Virus record (IMG/VR): IMGVR_UViG_3300047550_003482
Coordinates: 1 to 64,000 of that record
Strand: one strand, 5' to 3'
DNA: 64,000 nt
Origin: a virus
Each line of letters begins with the position of its first letter. Position 1 is the first letter of the stretch. The translations under genes were made by a program, and so were the position numbers. A model generated the notes under the pieces. The model saw only the letters and a program-made list of their open reading frames with translations. It was not told the origin of the DNA and did no database searches. Below are positions 15,156-26,312 of this stretch, piece by piece.

Positions 15156-15503
15156 TTAATCCTCTTCGTAATCGTTATAAGTATTTATGCTAAAACTACT
15201 ACCACAACCACAAGTGCTTTCAACGTTCGGGTTTTCAATTGTAAAATTAGAACCCATCAATGTTTCTTTATAATCAATAGCTGATCCTGACAAGTATTGC
15301 ATACTCATTGCATCTACTATGACACTAAATTTATCGACCTTAAATTCAAAGTCATCTTCGTTTTTAGATTCATCCATTGAAAACCCATAACTGAATCCTG
15401 CGCATCCTCCGCCTTGAACAAATACTCTTAAATTGACATTGTTTTCTTCTTCTACAAGAATATCAAAGATTTTCGTTTTTGCTTTTTCTGTAATTGTAAT
15501 CAT
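15156..15503 (-). CDS. Fe-S carrier, ErpA/IscA family
   Basis: LRVFVQGGGCAGFSY, CGCGSSF. Confidence 0.93.
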   Translation of the reverse strand: MITITEKAKTKIFDILVEEENNVNLRVFVQGGGCAGFSYGFSMDESKNEDDFEFKVDKFSVIVDAMSMQYLSGSAIDYKETLMGSNFTIENPNVESTCGCGSSFSINTYNDYEED

Positions 15504-16762
15504 TTTTTATTGTTTCCTGAACCACGTAAGTAGTCTTGGTAATTTTCGTGACGATCTTCAAGTCCACGTAAACCTGAGTTTATCTTTTTTGTTACCTGTG
15601 TTGTATTTTGAAAATCATCAACATTTGGACGAACACGATTTTTCCAAAACAACAATGCTATTTCTGCTGCTGTATCTGGATGTTGTGCTAGTTCTGGTTT
15701 ATTGACAAGATCAATACCCAATGCTTTACTTGCCTTTGTATAGTTGTATCTACCTGTAATTTGTATATATCCTCTGCCTTTATATCTGGCGCCGTCACCT
15801 ATTTTGGTATTTCCTAATATCTTTGCCTTTTTAGGTGCAAATTTAGGATCATATTTTCTGAAATCTAAACTTCCACCATATTCAACTAAGCTATTCCAAT
15901 CATTTGTTTCATGAGCGCATTGTGCCATGAATTGTGCAAGTTCATCACCTGATAAGCCTGCTTTTACTGCATGATTATATAGAATTTTTTCTAGGGGTTT
16001 CTGTGTAATGGGTTTAATTGTTTTTTGTTGTGCTTGTGCTGTAGGTTGTGGTTGTTGAGTTGTTTGAGGTGGTTGTTTGACATAGTTATAACCACCTAAA
16101 GCCATAGCACCAGCTGCTCCTGCCGCTGCTAATTTTTCTTTCCAACCTTCTTCTAAACCTCCACCGTCTCCTCCCTCACCGGAATCAACTGCTGCAATTG
16201 GATAGAATGCATATCCGCCGTATACTCTTTTAGCTTTTGCTTTTCTACGTTTTTTCTCGGACAATGTATCTTCATTCTTTTTACGACCTTGGCAATGTGC
16301 CCGTTGACTGAATCCTTTTGGGTGAGAACAATCAATACTACGTTTGTATTTTTGACTCCACTTTTCGTTTAAATCACTTTCTTCATTTACATTAAAAGTA
16401 GGATCAACTTTTTGTCGTTTCATTCCTTTAGGTTGATTTGGATCAATGGGATCAATATCAGTAGTTGTCAATCCTGTTTTTTCTAAATCATTGATATATT
16501 CATGCTCTGTATCTTCGTCGCCGAATGAAAGTATAGTACTAGGTGGACCTTTTCCAAAATCGTGTTTACCTAAACCCTTCATATTACTGATATGTTGTCC
16601 TAATTTATACCAATCATATACATCAGAAACATCTACCCTCACTGTTCCTTTAGGCATAGTTGGTTTAAATTCTGGTCCAGGTGGAGGTCCATTTGGATCA
16701 TAATCTTCGTCTGCTACTTTATGTTTTAAAGTGCTTTCAGAAATAAATTCATTTGCTCTCAT
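15500..16762 (-). CDS. tagged multidomain protein with C-terminal GH19 lysozyme/chitinase
   Basis: MRANEFISE start; AQFMAQCAHET, YKGRGYIQITGRYNY, KKINSG..GL.DR. Confidence 0.85.
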   Translation of the reverse strand: MRANEFISESTLKHKVADEDYDPNGPPPGPEFKPTMPKGTVRVDVSDVYDWYKLGQHISNMKGLGKHDFGKGPPSTILSFGDEDTEHEYINDLEKTGLTTTDIDPIDPNQPKGMKRQKVDPTFNVNEESDLNEKWSQKYKRSIDCSHPKGFSQRAHCQGRKKNEDTLSEKKRRKAKAKRVYGGYAFYPIAAVDSGEGGDGGGLEEGWKEKLAAAGAAGAMALGGYNYVKQPPQTTQQPQPTAQAQQKTIKPITQKPLEKILYNHAVKAGLSGDELAQFMAQCAHETNDWNSLVEYGGSLDFRKYDPKFAPKKAKILGNTKIGDGARYKGRGYIQITGRYNYTKASKALGIDLVNKPELAQHPDTAAEIALLFWKNRVRPNVDDFQNTTQVTKKINSGLRGLEDRHENYQDYLRGSGNNKK

Positions 16763-17985
16763 ATTAGTGTTCCTTCCGCCAAACCTTGTTCCCATACTTT
16801 TGCATTTGCGCCTTTGTTTTTATCCCAAAAATGCTTGCCGTCATCTGTCTGATAAGGACTGCGGTTGATAGTATATCCTTTGTTTTTTAGTGTGTCATAT
16901 ACCCATTTAGCAATTCCACGACCTCTATATTCGTCTGTCACAGATATATCCTGGGCTTTTAAGGTGTCACCGATCATATCAAATGTAAATCTTGCTATCC
17001 AATATGTTGAATCTTCACCCATATAAACTTCGACATACAGTTCTCCATTTCCCTTTTTAATGTTCATTATCATTTCGGGCTTGACTTTTTTGGGCTTGAT
17101 AAACTTATCGAGAAAGCCTTCCGTCACACCTTGATTTGGTCTGCTTAATGTATGCTTTTTTGTTTTATGATCGTATGCAGCACCTAACTTCTTATATATT
17201 TCTCTTGCTGCGTTGTTATTGTCTTGATCAGAGATGATATTGTAATGCTTGGACAATCCTTTTAGAAAGTCAGTGTAAATGCCTTTGCCTCTTAACTTTT
17301 TATCGAAAACTTCAGAGTATTGAACTTCAACTGTATCGTTGTAAACATCGGCCCAAACACCTAATACTGTTTTGCCTTTATCGTCCTTTACTCTAATAAA
17401 AGTGTTAACTTCAACTTCAGATTTCCAAGGCACTTTGTCACCGGGTTCAAATGACCATGTGTAGCCAGATGGTGTTTTACCACTGGCAGATTCTGCCAAC
17501 CCTTGTTCATTAGTAAATTTACGATTCACAAGCATAAATGGCGTGAAATCTTTTGTTTTTAAATACCAAAAAAGATATTGAATTCTGTCTTTAAGTGCAG
17601 CATCGGTAATTTCTTTGCTATGCTCTATTAATTTGTAATTGCTATTACGGGTAAATGCAAGTGCTAATTTCTTATAAAGATTGACTCTATTAGGCTCTGA
17701 TTTATTTGCACTAAAAACAATCATTGCTACTTGATTTTTGGTAGCATAACTTTTAATAGCGTCAATCACTGTGGCAAATATACGAAATGAATCATGCCTA
17801 TTAGTTTTTTGATCTACGAATATCCCTGATGAAAACGCCACAGCAAAAACACCAGATTCAATTCGCATAAATTTAATAGAGTAACTATTGCCATCTTTAT
17901 CAATGAATTGAGCACTATCATTATCTAATTCATAATCGTAGGGATTATTTGCCACTTCATTAAGCGTAAATTCATTTGCTCTCAT
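16759..17985 (-). CDS. tagged three-module protein with two GNAT-like domains
   Basis: MRANEF; LRGKGIY and YRGRGIAK motif A; QG[LV][AT]E linkers. Confidence 0.75.
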   Translation of the reverse strand: MRANEFTLNEVANNPYDYELDNDSAQFIDKDGNSYSIKFMRIESGVFAVAFSSGIFVDQKTNRHDSFRIFATVIDAIKSYATKNQVAMIVFSANKSEPNRVNLYKKLALAFTRNSNYKLIEHSKEITDAALKDRIQYLFWYLKTKDFTPFMLVNRKFTNEQGLAESASGKTPSGYTWSFEPGDKVPWKSEVEVNTFIRVKDDKGKTVLGVWADVYNDTVEVQYSEVFDKKLRGKGIYTDFLKGLSKHYNIISDQDNNNAAREIYKKLGAAYDHKTKKHTLSRPNQGVTEGFLDKFIKPKKVKPEMIMNIKKGNGELYVEVYMGEDSTYWIARFTFDMIGDTLKAQDISVTDEYRGRGIAKWVYDTLKNKGYTINRSPYQTDDGKHFWDKNKGANAKVWEQGLAEGTLI

Positions 17986-17986
17986 T

Positions 17987-25747: not shown

Positions 25748-26298
25748 AAACTATGACCCCACCTGGTATTAATCACATTCCAGTTTATGATCTTCCATTG
25801 CTCATTGAGGTATTTTTTCTTGTCACTACCATAGTCTAAAATCCAGGCATGCTCCCACCAGTCTACCAACAACAAAATGTCATTTCTTACTTCATGATTC
25901 TTGATTGTTTTGATAGTACCATTATCTGCAAGATATACCCAGTTAGAACCTTGTAGACTCATGGCTACTTTTTCAAATTCATCTTTCATGTTGTCATAGC
26001 TACCGAAATGTTTATTGATGAATCCCAACATTGGGCCATTTGGTTTATTGTTATTCCTTACTTCTCTAAACTGAGTAAACAACGTGTTATGTAGGAAGAC
26101 ACCGGCATAATTGAAATCCATGTCACCTTCTTTGTTGTTATAACGTTCTGCATAGCCGTGGGCAAGTTTACCATAATGTAAGTTTATGGTATCATTGCTT
26201 AAAACGGGACTAACTTCACGTGGTGTGAAGTTAAGAGGGATAATTTCTAGATCCTGTGGTTTGGACCTAGATTCTAGGATAGAAATAATTTCACGCAT
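25744..26298 (-). CDS. Fe/Mn superoxide dismutase
   Basis: LHYGK, LHN, D(WW)EH metal ligands. Confidence 0.9.
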   Translation of the reverse strand: MREIISILESRSKPQDLEIIPLNFTPREVSPVLSNDTINLHYGKLAHGYAERYNNKEGDMDFNYAGVFLHNTLFTQFREVRNNNKPNGPMLGFINKHFGSYDNMKDEFEKVAMSLQGSNWVYLADNGTIKTIKNHEVRNDILLLVDWWEHAWILDYGSDKKKYLNEQWKIINWNVINTRWGHSL

Positions 26299-26305
26299 AT
26301 CATGA

Positions 26306-26312
26306 TATTTAT
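26306..26312 (-). promoter_or_regulatory. late-type promoter (ATAAATA) heading the tagged gene block
   Basis: 7 nt upstream of SOD start codon, no SD. Confidence 0.6.

Follow-up and report, generated by a model that had tools for sequence, protein, structure and literature searches.

What makes eleven consecutive genes of one phage, for products as different as a NUDIX hydrolase and a muramidase, begin with almost the same few residues? The question is raised by a 64,000-nucleotide stretch of viral DNA (the window; positions 1 to 64,000 of IMG/VR record IMGVR_UViG_3300047550_003482), which belongs to a 90,419-bp contig estimated to hold 26% of a ~350-kb jumbo phage genome. The minus strand of the window carries twelve co-directional genes at 15500-26298, joined by ATGA overlaps or separated by gaps of 1-24 nt, and the eleven at 15500-25747 begin M-[RKL]-[AIT]-x-E-[FILV]. 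By analogy with phage T4, this shared N-terminus is probably a protease-cut tag of the capsid-targeting type, which would load enzyme cargo into the phage head. The initial annotation of the locus had proposed a capsid-addressing tag, and the proposal is supported by conservation of the tag across a clade, its EFIxE core, a Peptidase_S77 in the lineage, a promoter box shared with structural genes, and the virion proteins of the cultured phage Atu_ph07.

We number the genes p1-p12 by rising coordinate; p12, for a superoxide dismutase (SOD), is therefore transcribed first. The N-termini quoted in the initial annotation were all found at the starts given for them, on the minus strand, and its description of a tightly coupled block with ATAAATA at the head also held. 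The start of p1 was placed at 16762 and not at the upstream ATG at 16795, because the ATGA at 16762 overlaps the stop codon of the preceding gene. The features of the block are the following, in order of transcription; a slash marks a candidate cut, and ART stands for ADP-ribosyltransferase:

26963-26991, minus strand: sigma-70-like match TTGACA-17-TAGAAT upstream of gene 26552-26932; 11 of 12 positions match, the best in the region, while promoter-like sites taken together do not exceed the shuffled expectation.
26306-26313, minus strand: candidate late (T4-type) promoter box GATAAATA heading the block, 7 nt upstream of the SOD start codon.
25744-26298, minus strand: p12, Fe/Mn SOD with a ~17-residue N-terminal extension, MREIISILE/S (Pfam Sod_Fe_C 1.6e-22; Sod_Fe_N from residue 18).
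24020-25747, minus strand: p11, tag MRAVEF...KIAE/S and an amidoligase-like body (weak Amidoligase_2, E 0.005, below cut-off).
22970-23995, minus strand: p10, tag MRAEEF, a 121-aa module and a full p8/p9-type paralog with an internal MKITEI (residue 122).
22266-22973, minus strand: p9, tag MKITEI and a GNAT-like body (Pfam GNAT).
21556-22269, minus strand: p8, tag MRINEI and a GNAT-like body, paralog of p9 (Pfam GNAT, weak).
21083-21559, minus strand: p7, tag MKIREL(YE), a ~25-residue extension and a NUDIX hydrolase (Pfam NUDIX 1e-14 from residue 27).
20449-21078, minus strand: p6, tag MLIKEV and an ART (Pfam ADPrib_exo_Tox 3.3e-10); absent from relative L001.
19784-20452, minus strand: p5, tag MKITEV and an ART, paralog of p6 (Pfam ADPrib_exo_Tox 2.4e-9); absent from relative L001.
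18576-19787, minus strand: p4, tag MKITEIITE/G, a GNAT module (Pfam GNAT) and a ~280-aa domain with zincin-like leads only.
17987-18571, minus strand: p3, tag MRTTEFITE and a candidate ART-superfamily fold (family alignment and structure model).
16759-17985, minus strand: p2, tag MRANEFTLNE and three modules with borders QGLAE/S and QGVTE/G and the end QGLAE/GTLI; the last module is a p4-type GNAT.
15500-16762, minus strand: p1, tag MRANEFISE/S, a ~200-aa module, LEE/G, an Ala/Gly-rich membrane-like segment, a linker and a GH19 muramidase (Pfam GH19 1.3e-12).

The rate at which the motif occurs in the array is far above chance. When we ran ^M[RKL][AIT].E[FILV] over the 90-kb contig, it matched 11 of 11 array genes and 1 of 119 other open reading frames (ORFs) of at least 80 aa (Fisher 4e-15), while N-terminal composition predicts ~0.1 hits among those other ORFs. 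It also occurs at two of 566 internal Met residues, one of the two being the internal tag within p10. The sole motif-fitting ORF outside the array starts MLTKEI and lies beyond the window (contig 82804-83469, plus strand). Twelve tagged genes had been counted in the initial annotation: eleven fit the motif, and the SOD leader falls outside it, though it ends I-L-E/S. We regard p12 as a possible twelfth cargo protein, yet no carrier of the common tag; its ortholog in a relative, G002, has a leader that ends KINE/SR. About five of the window tags (p1, p2, p3, p4 and p11) have a long, T4-like form ending [IL]-x-E at residues 9-13, and the remainder keep the six common residues only, with I-x-E or A-x-E at positions 3-5.

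The bodies behind the tag had been called unrelated, which is right only in part because several array genes are paralogous. The p5 and p6 proteins are 51% identical, as are p8 and p9; p10 residues 122-341 are a third copy of the p8/p9 type, and p2 and p4 have a GNAT module in common. Once paralogs are set aside, ~eight independent bodies are left.

Is the peptide itself conserved? Three relatives speak to this. G002 is a complete IMG/VR contig of 359,563 bp, collinear with the window's contig (66 of 173 ORFs match in order); of its tagged genes, only two lie in the syntenic SOD-to-IscA interval, with ~ten more scattered elsewhere. L001, a closer relative (p11 protein identity 84%), keeps the array with changed content: it lacks the ART pair and has two extra tagged genes. 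In L003, a distant relative (30% identity), consecutive genes still start MRAxEF or MRAxDF. When IMG/VR was searched with a degenerate DNA pattern encoding MRANEFI, more than 120 loci were returned, and 98 of the 120 matches listed start an ORF of at least 70 aa. Of the 84 distinct proteins from the matches listed, 80 have Glu at position 9, a position that the search pattern did not cover, and 40 have A, G or S at position 10; among the same matches, the adjoining genes often carry the tag too, as MRAxEF[IL]xE, in up to 12 consecutive genes. The clade consensus is MRAxEF[IL]xE, and the leader ends in the prohead-protease motif [I/L]-x-E. In homologs of p3, M-x-x-x-[ED]-hydrophobic is found in 17 of 17 aligned sequences, followed by a linker of variable length. 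Synonymous codons differ at every tag position, so selection acts on the tag peptide. In short, a large environmental clade conserves the tag at the level of protein.

The same codon data bear on a rival in which selection acts on the RNA, keeping the start A-rich and unstructured so that initiation can serve translational coupling in a tightly packed operon. The ATGA overlaps and the gaps of 1-5 nt would fit such a role, as would the A-rich starts; against it, codon third positions vary where residues are constant, and other coupled genes of the contig lack the motif. We consider this explanation extremely unlikely.

The conserved core invites comparison with T4, for which we took the facts from cited reviews. 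The T4 capsid-targeting sequence (CTS) is the first 10 residues of IPIII, in which residues 4 and 7 serve targeting and residues 8 and 10 processing (PMC9026906). Aligned on EFIxE, the F, I and E of the window tags correspond to F7, I8 and E10 of the T4 signal MKTYQEFIAE. The packaged T4 ADP-ribosyltransferase Alt loses six residues at ITE-6, and a C-terminal piece is lost at LTE-619 (PMC5694885).

A gp21-like protease, which the initial annotation proposed to look for elsewhere in the genome, is present in G002 and other fuller relatives. The tag-bearing contigs that we examined are pieces of 22-100% of a ~350-kb genome, and Peptidase_S77, the family of T4 gp21, was found in all four that are at least 51% complete. 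It was not found in the smaller pieces, including five further contigs at 22-27% completeness, which is uninformative. In G002, the gene for the protease belongs to a T4-like head module, along with genes for the portal, a scaffold-like protein and the major capsid protein; the protease is 55% identical to that of Atu_ph07, and the portal is 50% identical. None of the known structural proteins of G002 carries the tag, which is therefore no general feature of late genes.

Atu_ph07 allows the reading to be compared with an existing virion proteome, which comprises 131 of its 714 proteins (PMC6102473). The homolog of p11 in this phage is gp196 (31% identity over 235 aa, E 4.5e-26), which starts MRWQDI...LTE and whose gene adjoins the portal and gp21 genes; gp196 was detected in the virion with 14 peptides and 30% coverage (PMC6102473, Table S5). 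Atu_ph07 also has a run of co-directional genes starting M[RK]Wx[QD]LxE. The pattern M[RK]Wx..LxE has 13 exact carriers in its 490-kb genome, and a reversed-pattern control has none. The carriers lie at 39484-50592 (minus strand) and also at 290373, 304780 and 350502 (MF403008.1). Matched by calculated mass, they are gp53-62, gp381, gp408 and gp482, and all 13 are in virion Table S5, with coverage of 12-46%; the published virion proteins include gp53-63, gp196, gp381, gp408 and gp482 (PMC6102473). The Atu_ph07 paper seems not to describe the tag, because its main text does not contain the words paralog, N-terminal or propeptide (PMC6102473). Enzymes such as an M23 peptidase have been reported in virions of XacN1 (PMC5852040), and the phages of this group may generally carry enzymes in their heads.

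The virion data also bear on whether the tag addresses some other machine, either as a ClpXP degron that times effector removal or as a leader for a modifying enzyme. Candidate ClpP (50688-51278) and ClpX (55288-56496) are encoded on the contig, and Met-basic-hydrophobic starts presumably resemble, if loosely, one class of ClpX N-motifs. We nevertheless find this explanation very unlikely: the tagged Atu_ph07 proteins were recovered from virions at the coverage given above, the tag ends in a gp21-type cut motif, and no modifying enzyme is encoded beside the array.

A head-loading tag would be expected on genes read with the structural genes, and the promoter boxes speak to this. ATAAATA occurs in 43 copies in the 90-kb contig, and we gave up the view of it as a chance 7-mer after a positional analysis in G002, where 37 of 65 [GC]ATAAATA boxes lie 0-45 nt upstream of a same-strand start. 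The boxed genes of G002 include those for the portal, two baseplate-wedge proteins, the tail tube, a virion structural protein, three tagged proteins and the SOD ortholog, the last with [GC]ATAAATA at the same 7-nt spacing as in the window. The positions of the boxes support the view that [GC]ATAAATA behaves as a structural-gene promoter of the lineage, and the GATAAATA box, by its sequence and place, supports a late T4-type promoter at the head of the block.

Two classes of box-to-start spacing, 5-7 nt and 17-26 nt, are seen genome-wide in G002 and in the window (26306-26313 and 15182-15189). AGGA or GGAG lies between box and start in the 17-26-nt class; the 5-7-nt class has no room for a Shine-Dalgarno sequence, which suggests near-leaderless late mRNAs.

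How does such an array change? The initial annotation had called the tag plug-and-play, and gene-content differences among the relatives do break at tag-coding DNA. Between the window and L001, homology begins exactly at the start codon of p11. Tag-coding sequences, those of p6 and p4, border the ART pair on its two sides; between p4 and p3, L001 has an extra gene with tag-coding copies on both sides, the crossover being at the final GAA of the tag, and another extra L001 gene lies in the p11-p10 spacer. The GNAT module moves among tagged proteins: it follows ITE/G in p4 and VTE/G in p2 and is fused to GH19 in G002, and each of the three copies closes with a conserved ...W-E-... stretch, after which comes the next [ILV]-x-E or a site like it.

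Breakpoints of this kind could mean that the shared start is a by-product of gene duplication and boundary recombination, the tag DNA serving as a microhomology joint and the peptide having no sorting role. That the insertions and deletions relative to L001 are bounded by tag-coding DNA agrees with this, as does the paralogy of several array genes. The peptide, however, is conserved despite varying synonymous codons; Glu-9 is 95% conserved outside the search pattern among the matches listed; the tag persists in L003 at 30% body identity and in all p3 homologs; and the analogous tagged proteins of Atu_ph07 are virion components. We judge a mere by-product unlikely.

Several results weigh against a head-loading tag and temper our confidence in it. 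No Peptidase_S77 was found in the window's own contig, a negative due to the contig being a fragment, 26% of the genome. The short six-residue form of the tag is the one present in six of the eleven window genes, and the sharing of the tag is partly due to paralogy. The array contains 13 [ILV]xE[GSA] sites, which is near the compositional expectation, so we dropped the statistical claim for internal cut sites; the internal sites of this type are located at module borders. In Atu_ph07, the tag M[RK]WxQLxE differs in sequence from that of the window, and 10 of the 13 carriers belong to one paralog family, so only ~four independent families back the link; moreover, an Atu_ph07 NUDIX protein with the tag-like start MNITEFLE (20.45 kDa) is not in the virion table. 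Finally, the strong sigma-70-like promoter at 26991-26963, with no terminator between it and the array, could give early expression as well.

The cargo can be described by body. Pfam agrees with the initial assignments of GH19, GNAT, two ADPrib_exo_Tox domains, NUDIX and Fe/Mn SOD; the amidoligase assignment has a sub-threshold Amidoligase_2 match only. The p3 protein has no Pfam match. Its family alignment has invariant R44, T60-S61-T62 and D169-V-E171, and its AlphaFold2 (AF2) model (pLDDT 84) has a disordered tag (residues 1-9). Structural matches to the model are almost all ART-fold, with middling scores (best Z 6.5, best Foldseek E-value 3.7e-3); the list includes MbcT, NatT, ParT, the diphtheria toxin catalytic domain, PARPs and AcrIF11, and the Atlas leads are AcrIF11 and ART-PolyVal (0.86-0.88). 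On the strength of this model, p3 is a probable third enzyme that uses nicotinamide adenine dinucleotide (NAD). The p5/p6 pair (19784-21078) keeps the S-T-S and E-x-E motifs and has VYHG and LYYG at the expected place of the first-motif Arg; from these residues, the chemistry of the pair may differ from that of classic R-S-E transferases.

The p1 protein is variable in architecture. Its L003 ortholog (15933-16673) has a minimal form, in which the tag directly precedes LDE/GWKE, the Ala/Gly-rich segment and GH19; the window protein has in addition the ~200-aa module, and in the G002 ortholog (324874-326511) there are several Ala/Gly-rich segments along with a GNAT module and a LysM-like stretch. 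The p1 protein may be a wall-cutting ejection protein or an enzyme of lysis. An untagged NUDIX of G002 lacks the ~25-residue extension of p7. The NUDIX hydrolase gp257 of Atu_ph07 (199073-199519) is a virion protein with 43% coverage; the homology between it and p7 is limited to the NUDIX box, and we did not use it as evidence. For the C-terminal domain of p4, the zincin leads were too weak for an assignment. Cutting at the tag, if it occurs, would divide p10 into two pieces.

Among cultured phages, the block had no match by megablast, nor did p4, p5 and a 123-aa tagged G002 protein by tblastn; homologs of p11 were found only in Atu_ph07 and RsoM2USA. These searches indicate that, save for the GH19 domain and p11, the cargo families have no cultured representatives.

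The head-loading reading can be put as a series of steps. The block would be read from its structural-gene (late) promoter as a single translationally coupled unit, and each protein would be docked by its tag on the prohead's scaffolding core during assembly. A gp21-type serine protease would then cut after the Glu of [I/L/A]-x-E and take the tag off; the same cut would probably also part the modules of p1, p2 and p10. Once freed, the enzymes would remain in the head, amid the packed DNA, and pass into the host cell together with the genome. They would comprise three ART-fold proteins, several GNATs, a NUDIX hydrolase, the amidoligase-like p11 and the GH19 muramidase, which has a membrane-like segment; after injection they would modify host targets or aid wall crossing, in the manner of Alt and the internal proteins of T4. 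The DNA that encodes the tag would have a second role, as a short joint for recombination that lets entire cargo genes come and go. Of this series, we infer the docking, the cleavage, the retention in the head, the injection and the host targets.

A broader claim joins these elements: T4-core jumbo phages would use a portable capsid-loading code, with lineage dialects (MRAxEFIxE here, M[RK]WxQLxE in Atu_ph07) matched to scaffold and protease, tag DNA that acts as a recombination joint open to any enzyme gene, internal [ILV]-x-E cuts of multi-module cargo in the head, and the injection, ahead of gene expression, of a dozen or more enzymes that use NAD, acetylate or hydrolyse nucleotides. We put this forward tentatively, as a little less probable than its contrary.

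Should the tag act in this way, an enzyme kit of three ART-fold proteins, GNATs, NUDIX and muramidase would be delivered before any phage gene is expressed, at the time when abortive-infection and NAD- or nucleotide-based host defences act. The T4 paradigm, with its few small inhibitor proteins, would be widened to take in large enzyme arsenals that change fast. Two further gains would be a sequence rule that predicts injected proteins in uncultured jumbo phages and a natural tag for loading foreign proteins into large capsids; through Atu_ph07, the idea can already be tested on a cultured phage for which mass-spectrometry data exist.

Other genes of the phage deserve mention. Translation factor IF-1 is encoded at window 26336-26551 (Pfam). 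The candidate ClpP and ClpX, together with a candidate ribosomal protein S21 (55070-55291), were assigned from reading their N-termini, with no family search. A ~505-aa protein adjoining ClpP (window 51337-52851; G002 306390-307919) starts MRELLNLFDVLKES in the window and MRDLIDLIKLLEG in G002, where its gene has a [GC]ATAAATA box 6 nt before the start; it may be further head cargo with a different leader. A candidate NAD-salvage pair, NAMPT-like and NMNAT-like (contig 69158-70528 and 73857-74885), was recognised by N-terminal similarity to RsoM2USA genes, and this NAD supply may be linked to an arsenal with three ART-fold cargo proteins.

How does the system compare with those already known? 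In T4, IPI, IPII and IPIII, which are internal proteins, and the Alt propeptide (Mullaney and Black 1996; PMC9026906, PMC3012670, PMC5694885) present, as here, a short N-terminal leader on unrelated proteins, and T4 reviews have already proposed that the CTS lets T4-like phages load varied proteins. The likeness extends to the EFIxE core, the [I/L]-x-E end and the gp21-type protease in the lineage. It also extends to Alt, since an ART is among the cargo and the short window ART tags MKITE and MLIKE resemble the I-T-E propeptide of Alt. The differences are several: the tag here has 9 residues (MRAxEFIxE) or 5-6, not 10, and nothing in it corresponds to T4 Tyr-4; a single locus holds 11 carriers and a genome ~12 or more, whereas T4 has four; and the cargo consists mostly of recognisable enzymes and multi-module proteins, whereas that of T4 is small basic proteins. 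The carrier here is a ~350-kb jumbo phage whose kinship with T4 is only distant. The variable internal-protein sets of T-even phages (PMC9026906, PMC3012670) likewise have changing cargo behind a constant leader, a pattern taken to mark an arms-race locus; here the DNA itself documents the turnover, with breakpoints inside the tag-coding sequence, and the cargo classes differ.

The giant phages phiKZ, 201phi2-1 and SPN3US have ejection proteins (PMC5694885, PMC7411985, PMC10052503) that resemble the present case in number and processing: many head-loaded proteins are trimmed after Glu, paralog families have identical N-termini, and a gp21-related protease cuts S/A/G-x-E. Their propeptides, however, are long and have no common short tag, and they belong to another lineage. 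Atu_ph07 shares related head machinery, a co-directional run with a tag ending L-x-E, and a p11 homolog in the virion, but it differs in its tag dialect, M[RK]WxQLxE, and in that most of its carriers are one paralog family. The PeSL mobile regulatory cassettes of T4-type genomes (PMC2839356) provide, as the tag DNA would, short conserved joints at gene boundaries for insertion, deletion and replacement; their joint is a non-coding promoter and stem-loop, whereas here it is the tag-coding sequence. The best available reading is that the array represents a variant form of T4 capsid targeting, found in a large clade of T4-core jumbo phages that are uncultured, the departures from T4 being the enzyme cargo, the clade-specific tag and the tag-coding DNA as recombination joint.

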